Source: an uncultured Bacteroidales bacterium
Lineage (GTDB): Bacteria; Bacteroidota; Bacteroidia; Bacteroidales; F082
Length of the DNA: 64,000 nt
Direction: 5' to 3'
Assembly (NCBI GenBank): GCA_947303335.1
Contig: CAMYYB010000004.1
Location: 11,618-75,617 of the forward strand
Shown here: positions 28,769 through 46,258 of the stretch, one piece after another
Position numbering within the stretch: position 1 is the first letter of the stretch
Layout: every line of letters starts with the position of its first letter
Translations under genes and position numbers: made by a program
The notes under the pieces: model-generated
What the model saw: the letters and a program-made list of their open reading frames with translations, nothing else
What the model was told of the DNA's origin: nothing
Databases searched by the model: none

Positions 28769-28798
28769 AGTTATCACTCATTGGGAATTAGCATTTTG

Positions 28799-30179: not shown

Positions 30180-30219
30180 GAGTTGAGAGTTGATAGTTGA
30201 TAGTTGAGAGTTGGGAGTT
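30167..30219. repeat. GTTGAGAGTTGA-type word repeat
   Basis: The sequence is agttgagaattgagagttgagagttgatagttgatagttgagagttgggagtt. It spans the stop codon of the M16 peptidase gene. Confidence 0.85.
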
Positions 30220-30224
30220 TTTTG

Positions 30225-30232
30225 TAACTTTG
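30225..30232 (+). promoter_or_regulatory. -7 box TAACTTTG
   Basis: 20 nt upstream of the ATG at 30252. Confidence 0.5.
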
Positions 30233-33362: not shown

Positions 33363-35828
33363 TTATTGCTTTCGGTACATCCTCTCCCCTGTCGCCACAA
33401 TCAGCTTCTGTATACGCCAGTTCTTCAGCATCTGCTTCACGCTGTTGCGCGTCACGCTGGCTCCCTTCACGGCAACCGCATGTTGCACGGCTTGTTCAAA
33501 GGTGAACTGAGGATCTAAGCGTTCAAAGATGGAGTCGTTTCTGCCTCGGAAGACGCGCTCGCCCAAAGGGCCACCCGCATAATCCCTGCTGGTGAAGGCA
33601 TTCTCGATGCGCTCGCGGAAAAAGTGGAGCGCATTCTCTATCAACGAATTGGCAATTTCATCATAGATGTCCAACAGCTGCGGGGTCTGCACTTTCAGCA
33701 GCATCTCCTTCCAGAGGTTGGGCTGTTGCTTCAGTCGGTTTTCCGCTCCGTTCATGCCGTGCTTCTGGATAAGGGTCTCGGCCACCTTGCAGAGCATCAG
33801 GCAGCAGGTCATACGCTGGGCGGTCACGCAGACGCGCATCCTTTGTCTGGCCATCGTGCGGTCGTCGTTCTTCATCGTCTCCAAGCGGACGTTCTCCACC
33901 CATTGGCGGCCTTTCTCCTCCAACTTGGGCAGTACCACCTCCCCTTGCATCAAGGGCAGCAGGTGGGCAATCTGACGGATACGCTCGGCCTGCTTCTCGG
34001 TCAGGACGAAAGGCTTGTCCTCCAAGGGCGCGAAGGTGTTGTCGGGCGTTCTTGCGACTGCAATACGGCTTTGGAAGCCGTCCGTGTAGTTGTTGACGAC
34101 TCTGTAGAGGGCATCAGGTGTGCCGCACATCGTCACATTCCACAGCAGTTTTTCAATGTGGACGTTGACGGCATCCGCGCTTCTGGCTTCTCTTTCGTAC
34201 TTGGTGCCGTCGTAGCTCTGACGGAGCATGATGGAGAAGTCGCTAAGAGAGGACTTCCATTTCTGTGCCACCGTGTCCGCTTCGGGCGTGAAGGAAAAGG
34301 CATGTTTGCCCTCCGTGTTCGCGAGACGCTCCGCAAGGTTGGCGACCGTATTATTCAAGGTGAGGCACCGGACTGGGAGTTTCGGTTCCTCAGGCTGGTC
34401 TTTCTTATTCTTGGCAGCGCGTTTCTTTGCCCGCCATTCATCCTCCTGCATCTGGTACATCTTGTCCAAAGTCACCACTTCGCTCATCCAGGCTTCCACC
34501 ACAGGGTCGATTTGTCCCTTGCCGCTGGCGAAGTCGCCGGCGATATAGGCAATGAGATTGAGGCCTCTTTTCTGACCATGAACATCAAGCCGCACGCCTG
34601 TGGCCAAAGCTCCGATGCAGGGACAGATAGCCGTCACCACGGGCATCGCCAAACTCGGCCCCACCGCCTCGATGGATTCCCTGACCCCTTGCGGAAGTTT
34701 TTTAGTTGACAGTTGGGAGTTGAGAGTTGTCAGTTCGTCCTCCTCCTCGTCGTTGCGAGGAACGAAGCAATCTAGACAGCCACTCCTGTCAGAACTTGAA
34801 CCCTGGTTTGCTTCACTACGTTCGCAATGACGCGAAGCGACGCTGACCTCACCATAGAGTCTTTGGCTCTGCGTAAAGAGTTCCTCCTGGTACTTATAGA
34901 GCTTCTGCGAAGGGTTGGTATAGTTGGCATAGAAGTCATTCACCAGTTGCTGGATGTTCTCATCGTTCCAGTGTTCGGGCATGAGTTCCGCAAGTATGCC
35001 GTTGGTCTCGGCTTGGGTCAGCAGCTGGGTCACGCCACCCAAGAAAATCTTCACGGTAGTATGCCTGCCGCCCTCGTTCAGGAAGTCGCTTGGCTTCAGG
35101 TTCTTCTCCTTCATCACGCCCTTGGCGATGAAGCGGGTTCTCTGGTTTGCTTCACTGCGTTCGCAATGACGCGAAGCGGCAGCATCTGAACGGGTTGCCT
35201 CAGTGCCAGAAACACTTCCCTCGCGCTCAGGGTGAGGCTGGTCATCGTCATGGTCACAAGTCATAGTCTCATTAACAAACAGCTCATCACTCAAATACAG
35301 CAGATCCTCCTCGCTCGCGGTGGTGGTGAAGAACACCCGCGTGATGTCCTTCGCGCCTTCATCGTACTTCATGCCCAGCAGAAGGCTCGCCCAGCGGAGG
35401 TTCCCTTCCTGTGTGAGGTCGGGCTTGCGCTTGAAGACGAGGTGGTAGCCCTTGGTGGCCGAGCGTTCCAGCATGAGCAGTCCCAGCTCATCCTTCTTGG
35501 CCAGCACCAGTTCCGGCACAGCCGCCATCTTCTCCTGCAGCCAGGCTTGCTTTTCCTCAGCCGAAAGGTCTTCGGGAGCCACAAAGTCGACGTCCATCCC
35601 CACCGTGTTGGAAGGTATCTTGCTGCCTTTCAGCGAACCATCCTTGTTGGGCAGGCAGCTGTAGTTCATCTGGAGCAGGTTCTTCTTCAGTTCCACCTCG
35701 CCCTCGCGGATTCTTTTGACCGTCTTTTTCTGGAAGACGCTGTCGCGCAGCTTGCGGTATTCGGCGGCATCTTGGACAGGGCGCATTTGTTTCGCCCTGC
35801 CCTTATAACTGATGACGTATGCACTCAT
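33363..35828 (-). CDS. Putative primase-helicase-like protein (BT4734/VirE-N-like N-terminus plus DUF3987-like C-terminus)
   Basis: The N-terminal block ...NYSCLPNKDGSLKG...VGMDVDF...KGYHLVFKRKP resembles VirE-N/primase-like modules of Bacteroidales islands. The C-terminal half has a degenerate P-loop GDFASGKG as in DUF3987. The central linker is built of repeat elements. Confidence 0.5.
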   Translation of the reverse strand: MSAYVISYKGRAKQMRPVQDAAEYRKLRDSVFQKKTVKRIREGEVELKKNLLQMNYSCLPNKDGSLKGSKIPSNTVGMDVDFVAPEDLSAEEKQAWLQEKMAAVPELVLAKKDELGLLMLERSATKGYHLVFKRKPDLTQEGNLRWASLLLGMKYDEGAKDITRVFFTTTASEEDLLYLSDELFVNETMTCDHDDDQPHPEREGSVSGTEATRSDAAASRHCERSEANQRTRFIAKGVMKEKNLKPSDFLNEGGRHTTVKIFLGGVTQLLTQAETNGILAELMPEHWNDENIQQLVNDFYANYTNPSQKLYKYQEELFTQSQRLYGEVSVASRHCERSEANQGSSSDRSGCLDCFVPRNDEEEDELTTLNSQLSTKKLPQGVRESIEAVGPSLAMPVVTAICPCIGALATGVRLDVHGQKRGLNLIAYIAGDFASGKGQIDPVVEAWMSEVVTLDKMYQMQEDEWRAKKRAAKNKKDQPEEPKLPVRCLTLNNTVANLAERLANTEGKHAFSFTPEADTVAQKWKSSLSDFSIMLRQSYDGTKYEREARSADAVNVHIEKLLWNVTMCGTPDALYRVVNNYTDGFQSRIAVARTPDNTFAPLEDKPFVLTEKQAERIRQIAHLLPLMQGEVVLPKLEEKGRQWVENVRLETMKNDDRTMARQRMRVCVTAQRMTCCLMLCKVAETLIQKHGMNGAENRLKQQPNLWKEMLLKVQTPQLLDIYDEIANSLIENALHFFRERIENAFTSRDYAGGPLGERVFRGRNDSIFERLDPQFTFEQAVQHAVAVKGASVTRNSVKQMLKNWRIQKLIVATGERMYRKQ
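34704..34735. repeat. GTTGAGAGTTG-type word repeat in frame inside the primase-like CDS
   Basis: The sequence is agttgacagttgggagttgagagttgtcagtt. It encodes LTTLNSQLST on the minus strand. Confidence 0.85.
34747..34771. repeat. REP-like arm CGTCGTTGCGAGGAACGAAGCAATC inside the CDS
   Basis: It encodes LDCFVPRNDE. It is an imperfect inverted partner of the arm at 34811-34835. Confidence 0.7.
34803..34839. repeat. 37-nt repeat CTGGTTTGCTTCACTACGTTCGCAATGACGCGAAGCG, copy A, inside the CDS
   Basis: 36/37 identical to 35142-35178 and 339 nt (113 codons) away. It encodes SRHCERSEANQ. Confidence 0.9.
35142..35178. repeat. 37-nt repeat, copy B, inside the CDS
   Basis: See copy A. Same reading frame and same peptide, SRHCERSEANQ. 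Confidence 0.9.
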
Positions 35829-36223
35829 TTCACTTCCTCCGCTGCTTCAGTGTAAAGAATCTCGTTGACTACTTTCTCGGCTATGGCGAGTGCCTGACGA
35901 ACCAATTCATCCGGCAGCACCTCCACCCTTTCAGCGGGTAATGAGAAGAAGAAGTAATACCTTCCGTCTTTGCCCAATGATAGCGAGCTGTTGTCTTCCC
36001 TGAAGATGGGGCTGTTTCTCACCCTTTTCTTCAGTTCGGTGATGTACATGTTGCCGTCTCTCATGCGCTGCACCTTGCACTTTGCCGTGTAAGGAGTAAG
36101 ATTCACGTCCTCGCAGCATTCGAAGTCCGCGATGTTCAGTCCGTTGCTTGTGGTGCCGAACACCATCATTCCGTTCAGTGTCACTTGATCCACTATGGGA
36201 TTCTGATTTTTAATTTTATTCAT
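35825..36223 (-). CDS. Hypothetical protein (132 aa), translationally coupled to the primase-like gene
   Basis: ATGA stop/start overlap at 35825-35828. No recognisable motif. Confidence 0.4.
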   Translation of the reverse strand: MNKIKNQNPIVDQVTLNGMMVFGTTSNGLNIADFECCEDVNLTPYTAKCKVQRMRDGNMYITELKKRVRNSPIFREDNSSLSLGKDGRYYFFFSLPAERVEVLPDELVRQALAIAEKVVNEILYTEAAEEVK

Positions 36224-36323
36224 GATAGAGTTGTCTTGTGAGAAGAAGGTTGGATTCTATGGCCATTTACTCGAGAACATCCTCCTCACTTCAACTCGGG
36301 GTTCTGTGTCACTATTGACGCTG

Positions 36324-36331
36324 CAAAAATA
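36324..36331 (-). promoter_or_regulatory. -7 box TATTTTTG upstream of the 132-aa / primase-like operon
   Basis: The reverse complement of caaaaata, about 100 nt upstream of the ATG at 36223. Confidence 0.4.
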
Positions 36332-36461
36332 TAGCGACTATTTTAGAGCGAAATGCGCTAAAACACAGTATTTTACTCAATATCCAATGAATCCAACGCT
36401 TTTGCGGGATTCTGTCCAACGAATCCAATTGTTTGTCCAAAATACAACTTAAAAAAGGCAT

Positions 36462-36487
36462 AAAAAAAGCCTCAATCGAGGCTTTTT
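36462..36487 (-). terminator. Terminator closing the five-gene operon
   Basis: aaaaaaaGCCTCaatcGAGGCttttt. On the minus strand the stem is followed by a T run. It lies 64 nt after the stop at 36551. Confidence 0.65.
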
Positions 36488-36550
36488 CCAAAAACGTTGC
36501 ACTATTTTCTCTTTATGATTTCTTATCCTCTATGATAGCGAATGATGAGG

Positions 36551-37597
36551 TTAGATATCAAGACTATTTTCTCGCTCTATGTCTTGTTTCAGTGCCAATA
36601 AATGCGTAAGCAATCCTTTATTGGCTATTTGATTCACTCGTTCTGCCTTAGCTGCACCCAAAACCTTCACCATGCCCTTTGACCATATTTCTTTAAGCGG
36701 AACCTCTTGTTTCATACTTCCTTTTCTCCAAAGATGCCTTTCTTCTGAAATGGATTTGGATAGTTTTCTTTTAAAATCCTTGAATGTTTCTGGTGTCTCA
36801 TCAGGGAAAAGCATTGGGAACCATTCCACCATCTGTTCAACAAAATTGGTGTTTGAAATTTTAGTTCTTGCCACACCTGACTCACATATTGCCTTTACAA
36901 TATAATACCATTCATTTTTAGAGGCTGGATTGATGCGTACCTCCTGTGGCTTACCATACATGATAGTGGCTTCCCCCATATCTATTGCGGCAGCAATCGT
37001 GTCCCGAAGTTTTGCCAATCTTGAATTTGAGTCAAAAAGGCTTACATTGAAAATAAAGTTCTTTAAGGGTTCTTCTTCAACAGGCGCATCTTTTTGCTTT
37101 CCCTTTGTCTTTGTACCAAAATGAATCTCGCCACCATCGTTATAGAAGAAGTTAATGATTGTACCCTTCTGCGAAAGCCGTTGTTCATTTATTTGACCCA
37201 ATAGGGCATCAATAGTCTTTGTCAAACAATACCACGAGAAAAACGCATCAAAATCAGAACGATCAATTTGACCGTCAAATACCATCTCTAGCACTTTAAT
37301 AAACTTTGCCTCGTCGTGTTGTTTGGTAGCACCATCGAAACAATCCTTCCAATATTGAAAAAACCTCCCATTGTGATAATTTTCCAATATAGCTTCACGT
37401 TTATTTCTTAGAAAACGCGACAATTCTTCAACATCATCTGGTGAGACATGTAGTTTCATCTCCTGCCAAAACGAATCCAAAATCTTTTTCCAAATAGGCC
37501 CATTCATGAAATCAATTCGTGCCTTATTGAAAAAACCTCTATAATCTTCGGCTTGAATGGCGGGTAAGTTGTATTTGTTTTCACTTATTGTAATCAT
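36551..37597 (-). CDS. Orphan protein, last gene of the NurA-HerA-GHKL-rSAM operon
   Basis: 348 aa from the ATG at 37597 (MITISENKY); the track start at 37621 is TTG. Overlaps the radical SAM gene by 17 nt. Mostly helical-looking with a K/E-rich linker (TKTKGKQKDAPVEEEP). No motif I can name. Confidence 0.5.
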   Translation of the reverse strand: MITISENKYNLPAIQAEDYRGFFNKARIDFMNGPIWKKILDSFWQEMKLHVSPDDVEELSRFLRNKREAILENYHNGRFFQYWKDCFDGATKQHDEAKFIKVLEMVFDGQIDRSDFDAFFSWYCLTKTIDALLGQINEQRLSQKGTIINFFYNDGGEIHFGTKTKGKQKDAPVEEEPLKNFIFNVSLFDSNSRLAKLRDTIAAAIDMGEATIMYGKPQEVRINPASKNEWYYIVKAICESGVARTKISNTNFVEQMVEWFPMLFPDETPETFKDFKRKLSKSISEERHLWRKGSMKQEVPLKEIWSKGMVKVLGAAKAERVNQIANKGLLTHLLALKQDIERENSLDI

Positions 37598-39524
37598 TTC
37601 TCTGGTTCTGTCGTGCTTCAAATTCCTTTTTCAATTTATATAGATCCGAGTGACAATCGGCAATATCCTTACGATAGTCTTTATAAAAAGACAAAACATA
37701 CTTATACTTCTCGTTATCAGTTAATTCTTCAATGTGATTGAAGTCATTCTTATAAATAATGGGCAGGAGTTCGTTTCGTTCCTCATCGGTCAACTCCGCC
37801 ATCGCTTTCTTCCATTGTTGCGTGTATCCTAAATCCTCAAAGAAAAATCGGAAAAGAAGAAATGTCTCTGGCATCAACAGCAACTCCATATACTCATCTT
37901 CGTCTCGTCCAAATGCCTTTTCAAAAAACGATACTCCCCGACCAATTTTTCCTTTCGTGGCATTAAGAATGGCCTGTACAGCCCGAATGTATTTTTTATT
38001 CCAATGCTCACCAATATAATCACGGTCATGGCTATGCTCTCCTCGTATTGGATGATACTTCATCGGGAAAGAATAAATGCTCACATTCATGGTCTCGCAC
38101 ATTTTAACATTCACACTTAGACGATGATACAAGTCAACAGGTTTGTCATCAAAATTATAGAGTAAATAATTCGAAAAATCACGCATACCGTGAGCCTTAC
38201 TAAGCTTTATGGCCTTTCTATATTTTGGTTCGGTTTTTATATTATCGAAAGCGATTCTAAGAGGACGCACGGGTATTTCCTCTAATAAAGACACGATTTC
38301 TTCAGTAAACAATCGGGCATCAACTCCTTGATTGAAGTCTACAAATCTTAATCGCCCCTTCAATCGCTTATATTTTTCATCAAAGTATGGAGCAAAGTCC
38401 TTATATGTTGCTATCAGTTCATCTCGCTTACACGTTTCTGGATGAAGGAAACCATGTTTCTCTCGCAAAGCAAAAACCTCCGTACGCATTTTTTCATTTA
38501 GACCCTTATATCCATTGAGAGCCTGTAACAGCTTATAACATTTTCGAATGTAGGCGCGATCATTCACGTGTAGCCGTAGGTTTCGAATGGCGATGTTATA
38601 TAGATTCGGCTCAACATACTTTGCTCCCTTAGAAAAGCCACACGATTTTATATCCTCAACAATGTCCTTTAATCTTGGTGAAGCTAACACATTGTTATCC
38701 ATAAGTAACAAGTTCTGCTGTTCACCATATAGACGTCGGGTACGATCAATTCGGTCGTGAAGAGGAATGTATTCCTTATAGTGTGGCTCTAACGTCCAAA
38801 CTGCACAGAACTTGCATTTGCGAATACATCCACGAGTACTGTAACTATAGTAGGAACCGCCATCAGGATATTCGTAATCTATCTCGTCAAGAATAGAATA
38901 GTCAAGTGGCAATTCATCAATGATGTACGGATTGTCTTCATCAATATCACCACCCTTGCCGTCTACAGCTTTTGTGTGTAAAGTACCACAATGAGGTTTT
39001 ATACCGGTAGCTTCTTCTATTTCCCTGGGCTGAATAGAAGCCAGCACGCCACCCACCATCAGATTCTTAAGGTCTTTTACCATCGTTTTTGCAAATTCAA
39101 TCGTTTCGATGGTAATGTCCCAATAAAACGTAAAGAGAGTGGTTACACCTACCCAATCCCAACGTGGATGTTTTTTATATTCTCCAGTGTGATAGAATGA
39201 TTTATAATGGTCTATCCATAATTGAATAAAAATGCTATCCTCAGAATCCTCTATTCCGATACTTTCAAAATCACTTTTCCGGCGATTGCGCAAATATGCC
39301 GCAATTCGGTCTGAACGAAGTTTCCAATCGATAGTATCGTCAACTTTCGATAATTGTTCAACACATTCTTCTGTGATTTGGCGAACAACAAATTCTGTAA
39401 GGTCTCCCTTATAGAACACAACATCATCTCCTCGCAATCTAAAATATGTGGCCAGTTTCATAAGGCCGATTGGAGGAAATTTATTTTTGTAGTTAGGTTC
39501 TAAAAGCAAGACCCTACGGCTCAT
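37581..39524 (-). CDS. Radical SAM enzyme with N-terminal B12-binding-like (Rossmann) domain
   Basis: CX3CX2C cluster motif in YSTRGCIRKCKFCAVW. It is preceded by RVLLLEPNYKNKFPPIGLMKLATYFRLRGDDVVFY, typical of the B12-binding-type N-domain of class B-like rSAM proteins. Confidence 0.85.
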   Translation of the reverse strand: MSRRVLLLEPNYKNKFPPIGLMKLATYFRLRGDDVVFYKGDLTEFVVRQITEECVEQLSKVDDTIDWKLRSDRIAAYLRNRRKSDFESIGIEDSEDSIFIQLWIDHYKSFYHTGEYKKHPRWDWVGVTTLFTFYWDITIETIEFAKTMVKDLKNLMVGGVLASIQPREIEEATGIKPHCGTLHTKAVDGKGGDIDEDNPYIIDELPLDYSILDEIDYEYPDGGSYYSYSTRGCIRKCKFCAVWTLEPHYKEYIPLHDRIDRTRRLYGEQQNLLLMDNNVLASPRLKDIVEDIKSCGFSKGAKYVEPNLYNIAIRNLRLHVNDRAYIRKCYKLLQALNGYKGLNEKMRTEVFALREKHGFLHPETCKRDELIATYKDFAPYFDEKYKRLKGRLRFVDFNQGVDARLFTEEIVSLLEEIPVRPLRIAFDNIKTEPKYRKAIKLSKAHGMRDFSNYLLYNFDDKPVDLYHRLSVNVKMCETMNVSIYSFPMKYHPIRGEHSHDRDYIGEHWNKKYIRAVQAILNATKGKIGRGVSFFEKAFGRDEDEYMELLLMPETFLLFRFFFEDLGYTQQWKKAMAELTDEERNELLPIIYKNDFNHIEELTDNEKYKYVLSFYKDYRKDIADCHSDLYKLKKEFEARQNQRNDYNK

Positions 39525-41122
39525 TTTGTCAGCTCCTTTTCAATCTTCTTGATAAGCCCTTCACGCATAGCCTCGTCTGCAATGGCGTTATATATCGCTT
39601 CAAATACAGTGTTGATGACATCTTTTTCCTTATCACCAAACTTATCATAAATAGCATTATCTGTTCTTAATTTCGGTTGGTCTATAGTTGATTCAGCAAC
39701 AACAGAAGCGCCTTGGAACAAATCGTTCATTTTTCTCCCGCTGACGCAGTTTTTTTCTTGCGGAGCAGGCTCAATAGGAGGTAATGTGCCATAAATAAAG
39801 CCAAGAGGAGAGCCGTTCTGCTCTGTTTCCTGTTTCTTCTTCTCAAATTGTTGGAGAGCTTTTTCTTTATTCTTCTTGAAACGCTCAAATTTTACATCAT
39901 CATCCTCAATTTCTTTTTGGGACAAGAATGAACTCGATTCTCGTTTCTTCTCTATAATTTTTTGCCCCTCTTCTGCCTTAGTAATATTCCTAATGATTCC
40001 TCTAATATTAGATGCTTCGTTACATAGTTCTTTTAGTGTAATAAAATCGTTCCTTACCATTCTCTCGAATGTGCTTCTATATTCGCATTCGCGAAGATAG
40101 TCACGTCTAGCATCTGGCATTAATAGTGAGGTCTCCACATGCAATTCTCCAAAGAAATACTGAGAAAACCGTTTGTCCCCTTCTGCCGTGAAAAAGTTAC
40201 GGCATGTGCGTTCATCGCCAACTTGTATGTTCTTGCAGCGTAGTCTTATCCCGTAAGCGATATTGTTGACTGGGATTTGTCCTCGCAGTTCAGATATTGA
40301 ATACCAACCCCAATAAATAAGATTACCATCTGTATCACGTCTGTCGAATAGTTTTATATCTCTGATGTCGTAATCTCCATTTCTTGCATCTTTAATCTTT
40401 GTTGTATAACCTTTGTAAATCTGCTCCTCGCCGTTTTCATCACCGACATATATGTTGTACACATCCAAGGTAATTCTATTGGTCTGTACATAACGTTTAA
40501 TTTGTGAGGAAAAAACATTAAATTGGGTCGGGTAATCAACAGGGGCAACCATTGATAAATAATCACGGATATTGTTTACATCAAGCAGTTGATCATCGGA
40601 AACATTCTCCATGATAACTTTGAAATAGTGCTTTTCCAATGCTTCTGGCTTTTCTTCAAAAGATGTGCAATCGTCAATTACATTTCCCGCCTCACTTTCA
40701 TCCATTTCATCATCTACAATACGATTCATCTTTTCAGCATCCCAATGCATCAAGGTTTTTACGCTTTCACCTTTATAAGTCGTTTCGAAAGTCAATGTAG
40801 TACAATAACCCAAACCTCCGAGACGGCCAATCCCACGAAATCCTTTCCGTTCCCCACGCCTCTTTTGTGAAGTTGCAACGTCTTTCAAGGTGTCACGATT
40901 ATTCGAGCTTACACCGGTAGCAGTATCCTCTATCTCGATTCTCCTTTGACCACGAAAGATTCTAACATGTATCTCGTAATAATCATTGTCTTCTAAATGC
41001 TGCTCGCGAGCTATGTCTATCTGGTCAGCCGCGTTTTGGATGTATTCGCGATAAATACAACGACTATCCTCATACATACTTCGCGTGAGGGAATCAATAA
41101 CGTATTTTCCAATTTTTGCCAT
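39521..41122 (-). CDS. GHKL (Bergerat-fold, HSP90/MORC-like) ATPase
   Basis: N-box YREYIQNAADQ, G1-like IEIEDTATGV and G2 box GFRGIGRLGGLGY. Start moved to the ATG at 41122 (MAKIGKY), because the 41320 start would overlap the HerA gene by 190 nt. Confidence 0.8.
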   Translation of the reverse strand: MAKIGKYVIDSLTRSMYEDSRCIYREYIQNAADQIDIAREQHLEDNDYYEIHVRIFRGQRRIEIEDTATGVSSNNRDTLKDVATSQKRRGERKGFRGIGRLGGLGYCTTLTFETTYKGESVKTLMHWDAEKMNRIVDDEMDESEAGNVIDDCTSFEEKPEALEKHYFKVIMENVSDDQLLDVNNIRDYLSMVAPVDYPTQFNVFSSQIKRYVQTNRITLDVYNIYVGDENGEEQIYKGYTTKIKDARNGDYDIRDIKLFDRRDTDGNLIYWGWYSISELRGQIPVNNIAYGIRLRCKNIQVGDERTCRNFFTAEGDKRFSQYFFGELHVETSLLMPDARRDYLRECEYRSTFERMVRNDFITLKELCNEASNIRGIIRNITKAEEGQKIIEKKRESSSFLSQKEIEDDDVKFERFKKNKEKALQQFEKKKQETEQNGSPLGFIYGTLPPIEPAPQEKNCVSGRKMNDLFQGASVVAESTIDQPKLRTDNAIYDKFGDKEKDVINTVFEAIYNAIADEAMREGLIKKIEKELTK

Positions 41123-41129
41123 ACCTAAA

Positions 41130-42800
41130 TTAATCGTTATAGTATTTGTAAATGGGTAGCGGGAAGTTGATGTGTAGCATTGAACGGAACACAGGATTCT
41201 GAATAATGTATTCACCTTGACGCATCCGAGTAAGCATTGTCTTATATACGCTTGGAACAAAACGGAAGTCCTCACGAGTAATCTCAATTGCATTAGTACG
41301 TCCAAATGCCTGTGTAGCACAATTTCCCTTGACTCGACGATGAATGTCGCTCACAAACTGCTCTGCTCCGAACAGAACGATGCCAAGTGAACGTCCACGT
41401 TCTGTAATATCAAGCAACTGGTGGAGTATTGGCGAAGACTTTGGAACATCACTTGATGCGTATTTGTTTAGCTCATCAATGAAGATGATAATACGATCTG
41501 GTATTTCTTCATCTGGTCGCTTTGAGGCACCAAGTTTCAGATTGTAAACAGCTCGCATCACATCACCAAACACAAAGCCTTGTGATTCTTCATCAAGTTT
41601 TGCCACGTCAATCACCATAACGTCATTCTTGTTGATGTTAGCAATTTCATCACGGAGTCGTACACCATCATCACCAAGTTTATTCGTAAACATCTGCTTG
41701 CACTTCTGGTAGCTCTTGTTAAACAGGCGATAGAACTTGCGCCAGCTCATGACAGATATTTCCTTTGTAGTATTCTTCTTATCCGACTGAGTATAACTCT
41801 TCACTACCTGCAAGAAGTCTTCCCAAGTCTCAACACCATAAAAGTCGCCACTATTGGCCATAATAAAATTCACGATACTTTCAATGGTTTCATTCGGGTC
41901 ATCTACATTGGCAAAAAGCAAATCCAAACACTCTTTATCTTCATCAGTCTCAAACAGATATTTGAATTGAGCTGCCGTTTTATTGGCAAGTCGCTCTTTC
42001 AATACACTCTCTTTTTCGTATGTGTAAGTCGTGTATTCCTTTGCAAATGGATAGTAATACTTCACTTGCTCAAATGGTTTCATTTCCATATTAAGCAAAT
42101 CGTACACAGGCTTGATAAGGTCGAGTTCCTTCTTGCGTTCATTCTTCTGGTCTATTTTCAAAAGGTCAGTACCTTTGACATTCATCATGATAAAAGCAAC
42201 CGATTCATTCCCCTTAATGGCATAATCTTGTATAGCTTTCATCAGGAACATAGCGTATGAAGTCTTTGAAGCCAAGCCTGAAATACCAGAGATATTCAGG
42301 TGAGCCCCCTCTGGTCCAATCAAAAAATGAGAGTTGAAGAATACTGGGAGTGTTTCCTTGTTCTCTCCATCATACATTTCAATGTAGCCTGCCGGCAAAG
42401 GATTCTTTACGTCCTTCAGGCCTAACGCCTCCATGATTTGTTTTTTCTCTGCTAAATGTACCTTCCTGCCTTCTTGGACGGGAATATAGATGCCTTTGTC
42501 ATTCCCCACCACCTTGCACTTTACATAATTCATGCCGATACGTTCAGTATATGATTTGGCATCAACATCGCCAAAGTCGCTGGAAATATAACCTGCCAAA
42601 GCACTTGGAGAATCTGTCATGTGGGATATTTCTTCTACCACACCAAAGGTTTTTGAATCTTCACCGCCCGCATCTTTTACATGATCAACTACTACGACAT
42701 CGAAAGGTTTCAATTTCAAATCCTTCCTTGTCCAAAAGGTGAACTCCTCAATAGTAGAGGGTTGTTTTTCTGTCGCAATGATACGTCCTATTGTTTCCAT
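41130..42800 (-). CDS. HerA-like (DUF87/FtsK-HerA superfamily) ATPase
   Basis: N-terminal barrel-like segment GRIIATEKQP...FDVVVVDHV, P-loop region LNISGISGLASKTSYAMF, Walker B RIIIFIDELNKY, and downstream GRSLGIVLFGAEQ. Confidence 0.75.
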   Translation of the reverse strand: METIGRIIATEKQPSTIEEFTFWTRKDLKLKPFDVVVVDHVKDAGGEDSKTFGVVEEISHMTDSPSALAGYISSDFGDVDAKSYTERIGMNYVKCKVVGNDKGIYIPVQEGRKVHLAEKKQIMEALGLKDVKNPLPAGYIEMYDGENKETLPVFFNSHFLIGPEGAHLNISGISGLASKTSYAMFLMKAIQDYAIKGNESVAFIMMNVKGTDLLKIDQKNERKKELDLIKPVYDLLNMEMKPFEQVKYYYPFAKEYTTYTYEKESVLKERLANKTAAQFKYLFETDEDKECLDLLFANVDDPNETIESIVNFIMANSGDFYGVETWEDFLQVVKSYTQSDKKNTTKEISVMSWRKFYRLFNKSYQKCKQMFTNKLGDDGVRLRDEIANINKNDVMVIDVAKLDEESQGFVFGDVMRAVYNLKLGASKRPDEEIPDRIIIFIDELNKYASSDVPKSSPILHQLLDITERGRSLGIVLFGAEQFVSDIHRRVKGNCATQAFGRTNAIEITREDFRFVPSVYKTMLTRMRQGEYIIQNPVFRSMLHINFPLPIYKYYND

Positions 42801-42807
42801 ATACTTT

Positions 42808-43980
42808 TCAGAACAGATTTATAAACTGAATATCACTCGTAAATCGACTTTTACAATAACTCTCAGCCATATACACAGGATAAAGATGATTTGCCCAACG
42901 GGCATCATTCCCGTAGCAAACAGGATTGCGTTCATTGATGATGTTTGCCGTTATGGTGTCTATTTCATCGGTCATCAGTCCGTTGTCATTCTCACTACCA
43001 GTCATTAGCATCTTCTCAATCTTCAGCACACCAGAATAAGGTGTTGTGGTATGTTTAATGTCTCGAATACGAACATACCAAATGGCAAAGTTTACATTAC
43101 CCCATTCATTTCCAGGACTCCAAAGAAAAGCCGGAGTGCGGTGGAACAGTGGTAGATTTGCAATTGCGCCGGCACTACTTTGGCCTTTGTTGTCTTTCAT
43201 TAAATTGGGATTGAAACGCTTAGAAACGCCGACAACGTGGCGATAATTATTGCGAATACGAGCCAATTCTTTATAGTCGCCTGATTTCATCGGTTTATAC
43301 TGAATGGAGCCGTCCTTTATCAGATAACTTTCATGAGTCAACATATGCTTACTCATCATTCTTGCTACAATACGTTTTTCGCAATCTACCATCTCATCTT
43401 GAATACGTGCAACACCTTTATTCTCCAAAGTTTCACGTCCCTCAAGACGAGTAAGGTACCAAAGCACCTTGCCAATCTCAATACCAGACTTCAATAATAA
43501 AGGCTGCTCATTCAACTTGTTCCTCAAATTGCCAAAGAATACACTATTGTCTACACCATCACCATTAGCTACTACCGGCAGACATACCACAGAGTACGCT
43601 TCTTCGTCTACATGTTGGAAGGAGCGGAACGTATAATCATCATTCATATCTCGTCCACAACATGCGACAGAGACTTGGCCACTAACAACGGGAAAGACTT
43701 TCTTGTCGTATTGAATATCATCCACCTTGTAAACACGACGTGAACCATCAAGGAAATACTTAAAAAGTGGAGGGCCTTGCCTACACAGTTCTGCCCTCAA
43801 AGTCATATCGCGCATCTTAGGATCGTGGTTACTCTCTGCATATTCCTTCATGTTGATGTAATGATCTTCATCGGTATCATATTCGATATTCGGGCCAGCC
43901 GAGTCATCATAGCAATACTTGAATGACGCAAAGCGTTTACCTTGAGTCTCACTTGCTATATAGTCCAAAATTTTACCCAT
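42808..43980 (-). CDS. NurA-like nuclease
   Basis: DGS motifs FLDGSRR and LIKDGSIQY as in NurA-domain proteins. Lies immediately upstream (7-nt gap) of the HerA-like gene, as in nurA-herA pairs. Start set at the ATG at 43980; the track start at 43986 is TTG. Confidence 0.55.
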   Translation of the reverse strand: MGKILDYIASETQGKRFASFKYCYDDSAGPNIEYDTDEDHYINMKEYAESNHDPKMRDMTLRAELCRQGPPLFKYFLDGSRRVYKVDDIQYDKKVFPVVSGQVSVACCGRDMNDDYTFRSFQHVDEEAYSVVCLPVVANGDGVDNSVFFGNLRNKLNEQPLLLKSGIEIGKVLWYLTRLEGRETLENKGVARIQDEMVDCEKRIVARMMSKHMLTHESYLIKDGSIQYKPMKSGDYKELARIRNNYRHVVGVSKRFNPNLMKDNKGQSSAGAIANLPLFHRTPAFLWSPGNEWGNVNFAIWYVRIRDIKHTTTPYSGVLKIEKMLMTGSENDNGLMTDEIDTITANIINERNPVCYGNDARWANHLYPVYMAESYCKSRFTSDIQFINLF

Positions 43981-44051
43981 CAACAAAACACTTTTTTACA
44001 CAGAATAAAAACATGTCTTACTTGCCCATAGGTCAGCATCGCGAATGCCAA

Positions 44052-44936
44052 TCATAGTGTCCTAATGACTTCTATGGTAAGCCCTGTGACATCGGCAATA
44101 TCCTCTTCAGAAAAGCCTTTGGCTTTCATCTTACGGGCATTTTCCATATTAGCTTCTGCTTTTCCCTCTGCTCTTCCCTCTGCTCTTCCTTCCTCTTTCG
44201 CCTCCATCTTTGCCGTATTGATGGCGTTGTTGATGTCGCGGTAGGCCTTTACGCTGTCTTCGTAGCCTCGGCGTTCCTCTGGTGAGAAACGGGCTATCTC
44301 GGCCTGCTCAAAGAGCTTCGTGAACACCTTCTCCTGCAAGGCCTTCGGACGCTCGAACAAGCGGGAAAGATTGCGTAGCACAAAGAGCCACTTGTCGAAC
44401 ATGTCCACCAGCTGGTCCTCCGTCTTGTTGAACTTCGGCATCTCAAGGTAGATGTACGTCAGCTTGTCGTAGAACACCTTCTTGGTCTGCGTGTCCATCA
44501 GCTTCACCTCATGATGCCAGCAGTTCTTGGAATACTCATCGCCGCGGAACTCAAAGTTCAGTATGCCCACCGTATAGACTTCCTTCAAGTTGAAATCCCA
44601 ATCGGCGCCGACTTTTGCCTGCTCCTGGATGGGGAAGGTGGAATAGAACACGCTGCGGTCCTTGAAGAACTGCTGGTAGACGTTCTGCATCTCAACGATG
44701 AATTTGCCACCATTCTCGTTTTCGCAATACACGTCGAAGATGGCGCGACGGCTGTCGCCATACGCCCCGAAATGCTCCGTGGGGAGGTATTTCACATCCC
44801 TGATTTTCTGATGTCCCATAAACAGGGCATTGAGAAAACTGATGAGCAAGTCCTTGTTCATCTCCGTACCAAACAGTTTCTTGAAGCCGAAGTCGGTGTA
44901 GGGGTTGATGTATTTCTCTTTGATTTCTTCTGACAT
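44052..44936 (-). CDS. Rpn-family recombination-promoting nuclease / PD-(D/E)XK putative transposase
   Basis: N-terminus YINPYTDFGFKKLFG and FDVYCE...FIVEMQ (D...ExQ/K core) are typical of the PDDEXK_2/Rpn family. The C-terminus has EGRAEGRAEGKAE repeats. Confidence 0.8.
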   Translation of the reverse strand: MSEEIKEKYINPYTDFGFKKLFGTEMNKDLLISFLNALFMGHQKIRDVKYLPTEHFGAYGDSRRAIFDVYCENENGGKFIVEMQNVYQQFFKDRSVFYSTFPIQEQAKVGADWDFNLKEVYTVGILNFEFRGDEYSKNCWHHEVKLMDTQTKKVFYDKLTYIYLEMPKFNKTEDQLVDMFDKWLFVLRNLSRLFERPKALQEKVFTKLFEQAEIARFSPEERRGYEDSVKAYRDINNAINTAKMEAKEEGRAEGRAEGKAEANMENARKMKAKGFSEEDIADVTGLTIEVIRTL

Positions 44937-44966: not shown

Positions 44967-45183
44967 GGAATAATTTCTTGTTTAATAATAAGCGCTACGG
45001 TTTTTACCGAAATTTTCACTCAGTCCTCTCCTTAGTGCAGCTGCATAGGACAAAGACCAGCATCACCGCCATAAGGGCAGACACAACACGGGATTCTGAT
45101 ATGTTGATGCGCTTAGTCATCATCAACTCATGCTTTCAAGGGGCAAAGATAGCAATAAATCTCGAAATCCTCTCATTTTTTTG

Positions 45184-45285
45184 CAACATCAATTCTATCA
45201 CCTCTACGATCTATCCTACGACGAAGTGCTTGTCATTGACATGATGTCGCCGTTTACGAGGGAGGAGTATGAGAACAAGACATAA
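45184..45285 (+). pseudogene. Orphan 3' end of a type IIG R-M / Eco57I-like DNA methyltransferase gene
   Basis: This frame reads QHQFYHLYDLSYDEVLVIDMMSPFTREEYENKT*. That matches the conserved C-terminal tail (..VYxLYGLTxEEI/DEVxIV..) of such enzymes. The same frame upstream has no methylase-like sequence. Confidence 0.45.
45196..45219 (+). repeat. 24-nt direct repeat, left copy (tatcacctctacgatctatcctac)
   Basis: 22/24 identical to 46205-46228. The pair flanks the HigB/HigA-like cassette. Confidence 0.85.
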
Positions 45286-45361
45286 ATATGAAAAAAACGA
45301 GCATAATTAGCATAAAAGTTGATTTTTTGCCAAAATACTTTCCAGAATCAACTTTTATGTT

Positions 45362-45369
45362 TATTTTTG
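45362..45369 (+). promoter_or_regulatory. -7 box TATTTTTG
   Basis: 21 nt upstream of the ATG at 45390. Confidence 0.5.
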
Positions 45370-45389
45370 CAGCAGAATTTAGAAAAGAT

Positions 45390-45872
45390 ATGGAAAGAAA
45401 TCTGCTGATAGAACTGCTTGAAGACGGAGAGAAAGTTAGTCTGTACTCTCCTCACTTTGAAGGCGAGGAATACTCTGAGTTTGAGAAGTTCTTGCTGACC
45501 TACAAGGACACATATCCTGACGATGTGCGTCAATTGGTGTACAGACTTGACATTATTAAGCGCGATGGTGCACGAGATATGCATTTCCGTTATGAGGGAA
45601 CACGACGCGACAGGGTAATGGCTTTGCCTTCGCATTTGGAAACAACTTCGTTGAGACTATATCTTCTGAACATACAGGCTAAGATTCTTATTTTGGGAAA
45701 TGGTGGACTAAAAAATACGGCCACATACGAAGAGGATGAGAATCTGCATCGGCAAGTAAAGGTACTTCAAAAGATTGATATTGAACTGAAACAAAGGGAA
45801 AAGAATAAGGTGATAGTGGTAACAGGCACAGAATTACTGGGCGAACTGTCTTTCACTATTGATGATGAATAA
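45390..45872 (+). CDS. Gp49/HigB-like (RelE superfamily) putative toxin
   Basis: FEKFLLTY...VRQLVYRLDIIKRDGA...FRYEG...LRLYLLNIQAKILILGNGGLKNT fits the Gp49/HigB pattern. Followed 17 nt later by an XRE HTH gene. Start at the ATG at 45390, 21 nt after a TATTTTTG box. Confidence 0.45.
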   Translation: MERNLLIELLEDGEKVSLYSPHFEGEEYSEFEKFLLTYKDTYPDDVRQLVYRLDIIKRDGARDMHFRYEGTRRDRVMALPSHLETTSLRLYLLNIQAKILILGNGGLKNTATYEEDENLHRQVKVLQKIDIELKQREKNKVIVVTGTELLGELSFTIDDE

Positions 45873-45889
45873 GAAAAGGAGGAACCGTT

Positions 45890-46180
45890 ATGAAGACGAA
45901 CAAAATTATGGATGATATTCGCAGCACCATTTCACCTGAAATGAAGTTGCAGATGGAGCTTTCTGTGGCAATAGCCAACCGCATCTATGAAATCCTCGAA
46001 GCCAGAGGGCTGTCGCAGAAAGACTTTGCCAAGTTGATGGGAAAGACAGAGACGGAGGTGAGCCGCTGGCTGTCAGGCACTCACAACATGACATTATCTA
46101 CGCTTTGTAAAATCGCTGCTGCCCTAGATGCAGAAGTCGTGAAAGTGGCAGACTATGAATTGGAGCCATCTATTGCATAG
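45890..46180 (+). CDS. XRE-family helix-turn-helix protein (HigA-like putative antitoxin)
   Basis: RGLSQKDFAKLMGKTETEVSRWLSGTHNMTLSTLCKIAAAL is a classic Cro/C1 HTH. Confidence 0.8.
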   Translation: MKTNKIMDDIRSTISPEMKLQMELSVAIANRIYEILEARGLSQKDFAKLMGKTETEVSRWLSGTHNMTLSTLCKIAAALDAEVVKVADYELEPSIA

Positions 46181-46186
46181 GAATCC

Positions 46187-46258
46187 GAAATCCACCGCCT
46201 CGTCTATCACCTCTACGGTCTAACCTACAATGGATACTTATATCGCTTTGATCTCTAA
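46187..46258 (+). pseudogene. Second orphan fragment of a type IIG methyltransferase 3' end
   Basis: Reads EIHRLVYHLYGLTY and then unrelated residues up to a stop. Shares a 24-nt core (22/24 identical) with 45196-45219. Confidence 0.4.
46205..46228 (+). repeat. 24-nt direct repeat, right copy (tatcacctctacggtctaacctac)
   Basis: See the left copy. Confidence 0.85.

Follow-up and report, generated by a model that had tools for sequence, protein, structure and literature searches.

A mobile cassette of NurA-HerA, GHKL ATPase and radical SAM genes as a candidate defence system in Bacteroidales and other bacteria

What could a nuclease, a DNA translocase, a GHKL ATPase and a radical SAM enzyme do together when one compact gene block encodes them all? 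The question is raised by an uncultured Bacteroidales bacterium, in a stretch of 64,000 nucleotides that is called the window here. Five open reading frames on its minus strand, A to E, were described in the original prediction as a single operon and a candidate undescribed defence system. Re-reading the sequence reproduced all five frames and all four junctions: 7-nt gaps between A and B and between B and C, an ATGA overlap of C and D, and a 17-nt overlap of D and E. The proposed terminator was also found directly after E: an intrinsic-terminator-like hairpin with a 13-pair stem and a T run (36461..36490, minus strand), the strongest of its region and the longest stem among the 11 terminator-like sites in 36200-44300. 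The block is indeed AT-rich, with a GC content of 0.396 against 0.498 for the remaining window and 0.547 for the adjacent gene, a DUF3987 primase-like gene that adjoins the cassette.

Gene A (42808..43980, minus strand, 390 aa) was taken to start at the ATG at 43980; the ORF list runs to a TTG at 43986. It carries the motifs FLDGSRR at residue 76 and LIKDGS at 220, and searches of Pfam, NCBIfam, PADLOC and PHROGs found nothing for it. Against PDB sequences, its profile had a single match, NurA (7f6d_H, E 0.063). The AlphaFold2 model (pLDDT 83.9, pTM 0.84), compared with the PDB by Foldseek, matched D. radiodurans NurA (7f6d_G, 3.2e-11, TM 0.54/0.62), TM1739 (1zup, 3.9e-9) and a chain of the TdpAB complex (8wfd_G, 7.6e-6). 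Residues D78, E201, D223 and H365 are invariant both in 32 and in 90 homologues. Gene A is thereby predicted to be a NurA-family nuclease with an RNase H-like fold.

Gene B (41130..42800, minus strand, 556 aa) contains GISGLASKTS at 172 and IIIFIDELNKY at 437. Its closest PDB sequence by phmmer is D. radiodurans HerA (7f6d_B, 1.8e-38), and a profile search placed the same chain at 1.1e-59, well ahead of other HerA chains. Matches to Pfam HAS-barrel (E 0.0022, under the cut-off) and to PADLOC mad8 (2e-9, C-terminal part only) are weak. Across 84 sequences, conservation is at least 95% at the P-loop residues K179/T180, the Walker B residues D442/E443 and the arginines R468/R470. By sequence, gene B is assigned to the bacterial-type HerA ATPases/translocases. 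In Deinococcus and archaea, the HerA ATPase ring feeds double-stranded DNA to NurA, which degrades it processively; these complexes act at DNA ends and serve as a repair machine.

Gene C (39521..41122, minus strand, 533 aa) is listed as an ORF extending to a GTG at 41320, but the ATG at 41122 was preferred as its start because homologues span 512-539 aa. It bears YIQNAADQ at 27, IEDTATGV at 64 and GFRGIGRLGGLGY at 94, with E26, N30, D33, D66, G70, G94, G97 and G99 conserved. It matches Pfam HATPase_c_3 (6e-07, 30 bits against a cut-off of 25), the NCBIfam 'HSP90 family protein' in its N-terminal part only and, in a PDB profile search, the N-domains of HtpG (4e-15), TRAP1 and Grp94; about 400 aa at the C-terminus have no domain assignment. 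The GHKL N-domain of C thus has its nearest relatives among Hsp90 chaperones rather than among the DNA-clamping proteins MORC and MutL. C is also the fastest-evolving component of the cassette.

Gene D (37581..39524, minus strand, 647 aa) combines an N-terminal B12-binding-type Rossmann domain with a radical SAM motif, CIRKCKFC at 233 (CX3CX2C), whose three cysteines (C233, C237, C240) do not vary among 112 sequences. The Pfam B12-binding (7e-5) and Radical_SAM (4e-4) matches are both under their cut-offs, and no significant sequence relative was found in the PDB. The AlphaFold2 model (pLDDT 92.2, pTM 0.87) retrieved TsrM (7e-8), MgmA (4e-7), AprD4 (5e-6) and MiaB (9e-5) in Foldseek; for each of them the TM relative to the query is under 0.4. 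D matches phrog_9298 (3e-38), and its family comprises 261 clusters at 50% identity (E <1e-30). D therefore belongs to an uncharacterised radical SAM family, distantly like these four enzymes. Viperin was rejected as an identity for D, being absent from the top Foldseek matches, with no match to a PADLOC pVip model. Altogether, every motif quoted in the original prediction for A to D is present, its key residues are invariant or nearly so across homologues, and the four domain calls withstood the fold and profile tests.

Which of these genes form the unit? The order A-B-C-D is strict in 116 loci, with median gaps of 2, 5 and -4 nt, while the identity of D to the window copy falls from 84% to about 35%. 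The hosts include Bacteroidota, Spirochaetota, Clostridia, Ignavibacteriota, Aminicenantes and Victivallales, among others. Co-occurrence across genomes, which had been proposed as a test, is therefore strong for four genes and restricted for the fifth: of the 146 loci whose sequence extends far enough past D, only 11 have E directly behind it, all of the closest clade. The conserved unit is A-B-C-D, not the five genes originally proposed.

Gene E (36551..37597, minus strand, 348 aa) has no recognisable domain and remains the orphan it was said to be, without a match in Pfam, NCBIfam, PHROGs or PADLOC. A homologue (57% identical) occupies the same position in locus L012, and conservation is concentrated in the C-terminal ~170 aa. 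In another clade (18 of the 146 loci) the fifth slot holds a large DNA-binding protein unrelated to E (hhalign probability 0.2); most of the 146 have no fifth gene at all. E is thus a lineage-restricted, optional accessory gene, perhaps a regulatory or DNA-binding factor of one sublineage.

Seven loci carry an AAA_15/NsnB-like ABC-ATPase with its partner inside the operon, between B and C. The pair splits the operon into A-B and C-D, consistent with a two-module logic. Other architectures keep D and a C-family ATPase in different company: W-C-D, C'-X-D, and DGQHR-D-C beside a PIN-like gene with C. What stays constant across the wider family is hence the radical SAM enzyme and the GHKL ATPase, not NurA-HerA. 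D homologues on four alphaproteobacterial plasmids come immediately downstream of DGQHR (DndB-like) proteins, with genes for ParB-N and a DEAD helicase close by; this association with DndB-like and ParB-like proteins points to DNA as the target and lends indirect support to the R-M-like hypothesis of the original prediction.

The setting of the cassette is mobile and defence-like, not one of housekeeping repair. The flanks vary, with 244 distinct clusters among 298 proteins, and belong in part to a prophage, to plasmids and to integrative elements; the low GC of the block likewise speaks for mobility. Neighbours include relaxases and T4CP, AbiEi/AbiEii, RloB with AAA_21, reverse transcriptases, SLFN with HATPase_c_4, pAgo, SIR2, Gabija GajA and DzbA. 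In the window, the surrounding island had been described as holding an Rpn nuclease, a TA-like pair and methylase gene remnants. The Rpn nuclease (44052-44936) was confirmed and the pair (45288-46180) matches the PADLOC candidate PDC-M64, while the remnants amount to a by-eye likeness of two short peptide stretches to methylase C-terminal tails. A HindVP R-M system lies further from the cassette. The cassette is therefore horizontally mobile and recurs across many phyla in defence-island settings.

That bacterial NurA-HerA performs housekeeping double-strand break repair here, next to two unrelated genes, is suggested by the closeness of A and B to described repair proteins of D. radiodurans, and the same role in Deinococcus and archaea weighs against a defence function. 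The reading is nevertheless already disfavoured and we consider it highly improbable: in 116 loci C and D adjoin A-B with almost no spacing, the distribution is patchy across phyla with variable flanks and foreign GC, and no Mre11/Rad50-type partner occurs among the recurrent neighbours.

Alternatively, the cassette might serve its carrier, be it an integrative element, a plasmid or a prophage, instead of anti-phage immunity, destroying rival elements at conjugative entry or processing the carrier's own DNA. It often lies in or beside mobilisable elements and conjugative plasmids; some copies sit in integrative mobilisable elements with Mob_Pre, a DUF3987 primase and an integrase, the window copy abuts a DUF3987 gene, and in the prophage Marinitoga camini virus 1 a short D homologue neighbours a pair of NurA and HerA genes. 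It has been proposed that HerA/FtsK-type pumps intercept DNA in conjugation or packaging (PMC10853773). We find this quite unlikely as the main explanation: in several loci the four genes stand alone between housekeeping genes (RuvB, MetRS), with no element genes, and the idea overlaps a defence role without excluding it.

Is such a system already known? None emerged from the searches: in PADLOC-DB v2, A, C, D and E had no match, B had only the partial mad8 match and no model fitted the set, and neither there nor in full-text literature searches did we find a named system or a paper describing this gene content. The closest precedent, which the original prediction does not mention, is TdpABC, a published R-M-like system based on phosphorothioate (PT). 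The tdpABC genes are described as a PT-based R-M system whose mark is made by tdpC alone (PMC12914056). Its restriction half, TdpAB, has a chain (8wfd_G) that shares its fold with gene A; a NurA-HerA-type machine with a DNA-marking enzyme is therefore a known kind of system.

By analogy, we tentatively propose, with somewhat less than even confidence, that the cassette acts as an R-M-like defence in which C-D marks self DNA and A-B degrades what is unmarked. The translationally coupled C-D module would choose the DNA for destruction: the GHKL ATPase would position or regulate the radical SAM enzyme on DNA, its presumed substrate, and the latter would put a covalent mark on the host's own genome. 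The A-B module would be the executioner, with the HerA ring translocating on mark-free DNA of an incoming phage, plasmid or ICE and feeding it into NurA.

Several observations speak against marking. Orphan modification modules are common among classical R-M systems, and no C-D pair of the A-B-C-D type was found without A-B in 116+ loci. In a Parabacteroides chinchillae isolate (L021), C is split into two ORFs beside intact A and B, a risky state if self-protection depended on C; the split may be a sequencing error. D homologues are rare in phages, with 3 among 50,697 phage records, so nothing suggests that phages encode a counter-modification. The N-domain of C is nearer to Hsp90 than to the DNA-clamping type. 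Finally, chemistry on nucleotides or signals is hinted at by singleton fifth genes directly after D, namely an HTH-MazG nucleotide pyrophosphohydrolase (L026), a sub-threshold NT5C-like nucleotidase (L114) and, in L044, a patatin phospholipase.

These genes suit another explanation, in which D would on infection turn a nucleotide into a chain-terminating or signalling compound by viperin- or OxsB-like chemistry, with the GHKL protein as sensor or switch and NurA-HerA (elsewhere W, PIN-like or patatin) as an effector, activated or acting in parallel. Patatins are typical signal-activated effectors, the W protein shows class III nucleotidyl cyclase-like motifs by eye, the fast evolution of C fits an invader-facing sensor, and the lack of orphan C-D modules agrees with it too. 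We nonetheless regard it as unlikely, since the top structural matches of D lack viperin and no PADLOC pVip model matched it, the nucleotide-related fifth genes are single loci, the cyclase likeness of W received no support in a PDB profile search, and the DndB-like and ParB-like association points to DNA.

Less probable still, C-D may attack or remodel foreign DNA and leave self DNA unmarked, creating, for example by radical hydrogen abstraction (a nick or break) or ATP-driven clamping, an end on which NurA-HerA loads. The pair would then play the part of the endonuclease beside GHKL ATPases of the MutL, MORC or TopoVI-B type. The dependence of HerA-NurA on ends, the constant company of the four genes and the pairing of C-family proteins with nucleases (PIN-like on plasmids, NurA-HerA here) are in its favour, yet it leaves self/non-self discrimination unexplained, the N-domain of C is not MutL- or MORC-like, and we know of no radical SAM nuclease in immunity. 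GHKL ATPases in R-M contexts have been proposed to act with nucleases (Iyer et al. 2008, PMC2292703), which also suits such licensing.

In the R-M-like reading, the defence function, the roles given to the two modules and DNA as the substrate of D are inferences; what the analysis shows are the genes with their folds and catalytic motifs, a conserved operon, mobility and neighbourhoods of defence type. Recurring in such neighbourhoods and matching no named system among those searched, the cassette is a strong candidate for a novel system directed against phages or plasmids.

The five minus-strand genes of the cassette lie at 42808-43980 (gene A, 390 aa), 41130-42800 (B, 556 aa), 39521-41122 (C, 533 aa), 37581-39524 (D, 647 aa) and 36551-37597 (E, 348 aa), with start codons picked to match the lengths of homologues. 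The ORF listing and the sequence itself agree with the layout of the original prediction: gaps of 7 nt separate A from B and B from C, C and D share an ATGA overlap, and D and E overlap by 17 nt. The expected hairpin and T run close the unit 3' of E (13 pairs, 36490-36461, minus strand), its stem being longer than that of any other terminator-like site in the region. The block is indeed AT-rich, with a GC content of 0.396 against 0.498 in the remaining window and 0.547 in the adjoining DUF3987 gene. Every motif quoted in the prediction was found in the protein to which it had been ascribed.

The cassette represents a conserved mobile operon, in which a NurA-HerA pair (A and B) is joined to a GHKL ATPase (C) and a radical SAM enzyme (D) whose genes are translationally coupled. 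We collected 80 genomic loci with a profile built on full-length D homologues and 80 metagenomic loci with one built on shorter D homologues, and scored their ORFs with family HMMs (L-numbers denote homologous loci throughout). In 116 loci the genes keep strict A-B-C-D order on one strand, with median intergenic distances of 2, 5 and -4 nt for A-B, B-C and C-D; herA/nurA adjacency is thus retained, at 7 nt in the window and a median of 2 nt across these loci. Most of the others are truncated at contig ends. Identity of D to the window protein ranges from 84% down to about 35%. The hosts include members of Bacteroidota (Prevotella, Alistipes, Parabacteroides, Bacteroides, Dysgonomonas, Saprospiraceae, Roseivirga) and beyond (Treponema, Sphaerochaetaceae, Clostridia, Victivallales, Ignavibacteriota, Aminicenantes), mostly in gut, rumen and sediment. 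Searches scored over 7,900 D homologues and returned 3,816 A homologues at E <= 1e-10; individual clusters contain hundreds of sequences from gut and rumen metagenomes.

By sequence, B is a genuine bacterial HerA. D. radiodurans HerA (7f6d_B) was hit in PDB searches both by the single sequence (1.8e-38) and by the profile (1.1e-59), the remaining HerA chains being far weaker against the profile (8ziq, 1e-3; 8wiv, 0.84). Across 84 sequences, conservation reaches 95% or more at the P-loop residues K179/T180, at the Walker B residues D442/E443 and at R468/R470. Together with a sub-threshold Pfam HAS-barrel match (E 0.0022), these residues point to the HerA combination of a HAS barrel and a RecA-like FtsK/HerA ATPase domain with Walker A and B motifs and an arginine finger.

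A is predicted to adopt the NurA fold. Pfam scans, including the NurA model, and NCBIfam, PHROGs and PADLOC scans gave no match, and a profile of 32 homologues found a single PDB entry, D. radiodurans NurA, at E 0.063. In Foldseek searches the AlphaFold2 model (pLDDT 83.9) resembles D. radiodurans NurA 7f6d_G (3.2e-11, TM 0.54/0.62), T. maritima TM1739 (3.9e-9) and chain 8wfd_G of the TdpAB complex (7.6e-6, TM 0.35). Residues D78, E201, D223 and H365 are invariant among homologues, and would furnish the modelled RNase H-like nuclease fold with the conserved acidic and His catalytic residues of NurA. Judging from its conserved residues, the pair should be catalytically intact. The NurA-like and HerA-like assignments of the original prediction are thereby upheld, by fold for the former (7f6d_G) and by profile for the latter (7f6d_B).

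C passes the Pfam cut-off for HATPase_c_3 and conserves the residues of the N-box, G1 and G2, in agreement with its earlier assignment as a GHKL (Bergerat-fold) ATPase. Its N-domain profile is closest to Hsp90/HtpG (4e-15): the best 60 of 183 PDB matches are all Hsp90-family chains (HtpG, TRAP1, Grp94), with no MORC or MutL chain among these 60. C thus carries Bergerat ATP-binding motifs but, with MORC/MutL not its closest relatives, does not look like a MORC/paraMORC member. No PADLOC model matches it, and about 400 C-terminal residues beyond the N-domain match have no assigned domain. C is also the fastest-evolving component; at a mean D identity of 76% to the window, A stands at 80%, B at 86% and C at 58%. 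Residues ~450-480 form a hypervariable, low-complexity linker, in which identity to the window drops to 0.11 against 0.42-0.79 in other 30-residue blocks (26 close relatives).

D is predicted to be a radical SAM enzyme from an uncharacterised family. The cysteines of its CX3CX2C motif, C233, C237 and C240, are invariant in 112 sequences, and in its AlphaFold2 model (pLDDT 92.2) a Rossmann domain precedes a radical SAM barrel, which is followed by a helical C-terminal domain. The nearest structures in Foldseek are TsrM (7e-8), MgmA (4e-7), AprD4 and MiaB/RimO, at 9-12% sequence identity and a TM relative to the query of at most 0.39. These enzymes share the domain order of D: Rossmann, barrel with CX3CX2C, C-terminal domain. 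Pfam recognises B12-binding (7e-5) and Radical_SAM (4e-4), both under the cut-off, and in PDB searches no solved structure proved significantly related in sequence. The predicted radical SAM enzyme with a B12-type Rossmann domain is therefore confirmed at the level of the fold (TsrM) and of the invariant motif. With an N-terminal B12-binding Rossmann domain preceding the barrel, the model has class B architecture. AprD4 has the same architecture and yet is not known to use cobalamin, so architecture alone cannot settle cobalamin use by D. The N-domain has no conserved Cys and hence lacks a MiaB-type auxiliary cluster.

Two library representatives may join D-family parts to other modules: P0218, with a GHKL N-domain and the C-terminal half of a D-family protein, and P0261, with a 2Fe-2S/4Fe-4S ferredoxin module and a D-family C-terminal part. 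They may be real Rosetta-stone fusions or artefacts of assembly or gene calling.

Gene E was rightly described as lacking a recognisable motif: Pfam, NCBIfam, PHROGs and PADLOC scans detect no domain. The gene in the matching position of L012 is 57% identical to it. Among 146 loci with at least 600 nt of sequence after D, E occurs in only 11, all from the closest clade and always directly after D. A tightly coupled gene follows D in 48 of the 146. In 18 it encodes an 800-1000 aa protein unrelated to E, with RNA-polymerase alpha-CTD-like and sigma-70 region 4 domains in the members scanned; singletons include HTH-MazG, patatin, a weak NT5C-like protein and an AAA_15 ATPase. Since E is present in 11 of the 146 loci, and other proteins or none take its place elsewhere, we regard the core as four genes plus a variable accessory slot. 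Thus the predicted five-gene operon does not stand as a unit, E being missing from most loci, while its A-B-C-D order does. Homology of E to the large alternative fifth gene was rejected (hhalign probability 0.2), as was the view of E as a piece of the neighbouring DUF3987 primase element, because in L019, L027 and L028 E follows D and the sequence examined shows no DUF3987 gene. Some of the fifth genes are nucleotide-related or of effector type, a point that counts against the self-marking scheme discussed below and keeps in play viperin/OxsB-like or signalling chemistry by D, as well as radical damage to DNA.

What surrounds the cassette is hardly ever shared: 298 neighbours fall into 244 protein clusters. 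Part of the loci lie in integrative mobilisable elements with an integrase, Mob_Pre and a DUF3987 primase; in others the cassette stands alone with housekeeping genes on either side. Neighbours of mobile elements include relaxases and coupling proteins, and those of defence type AbiEi/AbiEii, RloB with AAA_21, reverse transcriptases, SLFN with HATPase_c_4, pAgo, SIR2, GajA, DzbA and PDC-S01. The conserved neighbours of A-B are the GHKL and radical SAM genes, and no Mre11/Rad50-type partners of NurA-HerA were seen among the recurrent neighbours. A housekeeping-repair context, which would speak against defence, was not found, as flanks vary and partners come from mobile elements.

In seven loci (L059, L090, L092, L136, L138, L155, L156) an AAA_15/AAA_21 ABC-type ATPase and a partner of ~270-295 aa are inserted between B and C or between two C copies. 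Two of these ATPases were scanned and match PADLOC NsnB (4e-64 and 5e-66) as well as HEC-03B; the pair is either a second system or an integral accessory module. A related locus (L093, 7860-11686) is found in Marinitoga camini virus 1 (KP836355), a temperate phage/prophage of a Thermotogota host with resolvase and repressor genes in the region. Here the genes for homologues of NurA (family HMM E 5e-28) and HerA (2e-98) converge on a radical SAM gene of the D family that encodes 360 aa, and a scan of 16.8 kb revealed no GHKL gene of the C family.

The island in the window contains the Rpn-family PD-(D/E)XK nuclease that had been recognised from sequence, encoded directly upstream of A (44052-44936, minus strand; PDDEXK_2 3.9e-77, TIGR01784 1.2e-29). 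The TA-like pair is present as two plus-strand genes (45288-46180) for a 194-aa protein and a 96-aa HTH_3 protein; they match components B and C of the candidate system PDC-M64 in PADLOC (3.9e-40 and 3.9e-29). On the same strand, stretches at 46181-46240 and ~45180-45287 ('EIHRLVYHLYGLTY...' and 'FYHLYDLSYDEVLVID...') recall by eye the C-terminal tails of N6-adenine/type IIG methylases, and are probably the methylase remnants of the original prediction. A second low-GC patch (0.35-0.42; 26355-28777, minus strand) holds an apparently intact Type II R-M pair, with a C5 cytosine methylase (26355-27698; PF00145, 3e-72) and a HindVP-family restriction endonuclease (27695-28777; PF09519, 6e-136), both on the minus strand. 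Within the DUF3987 primase-like gene lie two direct repeats of 37 nt (34803-34839 and 35142-35178, 97% identical) and an array of AGTTGAG-like heptamers with 14-nt spacing (34690-34735), which recurs in an intergenic region at 30153-30226; the repeats in the gene look like insertions read through in frame.

Beyond A-B-C-D, D and a C-family ATPase are the constant pair across architectures. One variant is W-C-D (L107 3217-7291; L110 5717-9629; L113 2059-5953; L095 13317-17383; L099 1130-5125), in which W, of ~265 aa, has no Pfam match. Its conserved motifs AFxDxLG, SDSF, RGAxxxG and GPAxIxAY recall class III nucleotidyl cyclases; the resemblance is by eye only and a PDB profile search was empty, leaving that identity unsupported. 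In the C'-X-D variant, a second GHKL type (C') is followed by X (~330 aa) and D. It stands alone in one Altiarchaeales and one Ignavibacteriota genome, and elsewhere lies behind A-B-C. The C' ATPase domain matches the PADLOC models MzaB, TmtA and REase_II, and the sole PDB match of the X profile, La protein, is spurious. A further architecture combines a helicase, an SMC-like ATPase and D.

DGQHR (ParB-fold) proteins of the DndB/DpdB type are companions of the enzymes that modify DNA in the Dnd and Dpd systems. On four alphaproteobacterial plasmids, three of them typed conjugative and one being pNL1 of Novosphingobium aromaticivorans, a protein annotated as DGQHR (DndB-like) in the source records is directly followed by D (1e-135) and a C-family ATPase (1e-88 to 1e-99), at L175 6800-11041, L176 6838-10978, L177 5791-10068 and L178 5827-10056. 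Three of the four plasmids carry a PIN-like protein and a second C-family ATPase beside the triad, and three of the four a DEAD helicase and a ParB-N protein. The triad looks like a separate, larger candidate system. It belongs to a distant branch, at 32-34% identity to D, and the window cassette has no DGQHR gene. A DGQHR/ParB-like nature of X is unsupported, its HMM missing the plasmid DGQHR proteins.

Among known systems, the HerA-NurA end-resection complex (D. radiodurans 7f6d; archaeal) gives the best sequence and structure match for A and B, and shares with them adjacent genes and conserved ATPase and nuclease catalytic residues. Unlike it, the cassette pair is always tied to GHKL and radical SAM genes, and the cassette is mobile and patchy, with defence-island neighbours and without Mre11/Rad50 partners. 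In TdpABC, the ring ATPase TdpA is reportedly HerA-like and the nuclease TdpB NurA-like. PMC12914056 presents tdpABC as a phosphorothioate (PT)-based R-M-like system, in which TdpC marks self DNA and TdpAB is the restriction half. By analogy, the cassette would follow the same two-module logic of a restriction pair and a marking enzyme. The fold of A resembles chain 8wfd_G of the TdpAB-DNA complex (PDB 8wfd) at the superfamily level only, whereas B has no sequence match to TdpA in PDB searches. A radical SAM enzyme and a GHKL ATPase stand where TdpABC has a TdpC/DndC/PAPS-reductase-type enzyme, no operon protein matches a DNA sulfur-modification enzyme in PADLOC or Pfam, and the hosts are for the most part inhabitants of gut, rumen and sediment instead of extreme thermophiles.

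SIR2-HerA and DUF4297-HerA (Gao_Her) are anti-phage systems that likewise use a HerA-family ATPase as motor or scaffold. However, the cassette has four genes instead of two and a predicted NurA effector instead of SIR2 or Cap4-like DUF4297; neither domain was found in the operon, and the PADLOC Her models gave no match. With MADS (mad1-mad8) the cassette shares only a partial match of B to mad8 (residues 350-551, 2e-9), no MADS component being matched in A, C, D or E by PADLOC. GHKL ATPases are encoded with nucleases in mobile conflict systems, among them the GHKL/MORC R-M-type systems (Iyer et al. 2008) and Mza (MzaB). These have no radical SAM partner, and the C N-domain is Hsp90/HtpG-like. 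Prokaryotic viperins (pVip) are radical SAM enzymes in an immune context; D differs in subfamily and architecture and in its obligatory GHKL and nuclease partners. Neither Foldseek nor PADLOC, including its pVip model, matched D to a viperin, though CX3CX2C is present.

In PADLOC-DB v2.0.0, no family matches A, C, D or E at E <= 0.01 and no model fits the set, in line with the prediction that no named system has this content. Across Pfam, NCBIfam, PHROGs and PADLOC, none of the five proteins was assigned to a named defence system. Nor was the gene set found described in a full-text literature search, which left most subscription literature outside its reach and surfaced, as radical-SAM defence systems, only viperins and the unrelated HXS. 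In the source databases these proteins are called 'radical SAM protein' at best, and otherwise 'hypothetical protein'.

We favour an R-M-like scheme. In it, NurA-HerA would be the DNA-degrading effector, the GHKL-radical SAM pair would supply discrimination and D would mark self DNA. This scheme is preferred because TdpABC uses a structurally related pair as its restriction half, and because D homologues associate with DndB-like and ParB-like proteins. Self-marking is countered by the finding of no orphan C-D pairs among the loci, by L021, in which C is split with A and B intact, and by phages almost never carrying D. The same observations keep alive both the viperin/OxsB-like or signalling model and the radical DNA-damage model. 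Anti-restriction by phage-encoded D was rejected: only three phage records were found, one of them the defence-like NurA-HerA prophage locus, and BFVD returned generic radical SAM folds only.

Since TdpABC already couples HerA/NurA-type restriction to DNA marking, the R-M-like scheme places the cassette near a known kind of system, with a substantial chance that its chemistry is new. A bolder version, which we consider rather unlikely, makes the GHKL-radical SAM pair the core of a large undescribed immune family: the radical SAM enzyme would write a novel covalent self mark on DNA, e.g. by methylation of an unactivated carbon or by another kind of radical chemistry, and interchangeable nucleases (NurA-HerA, PIN-like, W, X) would destroy unmarked DNA. 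If true, this would mean a new DNA modification chemistry and a new principle of epigenetic restriction, abundant in gut and rumen Bacteroidota.

D represents a radical SAM family without a characterised relative, whose partners are ATPases, nucleases and DndB-like proteins; identifying what it acts on might uncover new chemistry of nucleic acids or nucleotides. If the proposed role holds, the cassette and TdpABC together would imply that evolution has turned the NurA-HerA 'repair' machine into a restriction engine more than once. The cassette is common, and its gene set is matched by no defence HMM. Should it prove to be an immune system, it would constitute a major unrecognised layer of the defensome of human-gut and rumen Bacteroidota, with consequences for phage therapy, for the engineering of microbiomes and for the transfer of plasmids.
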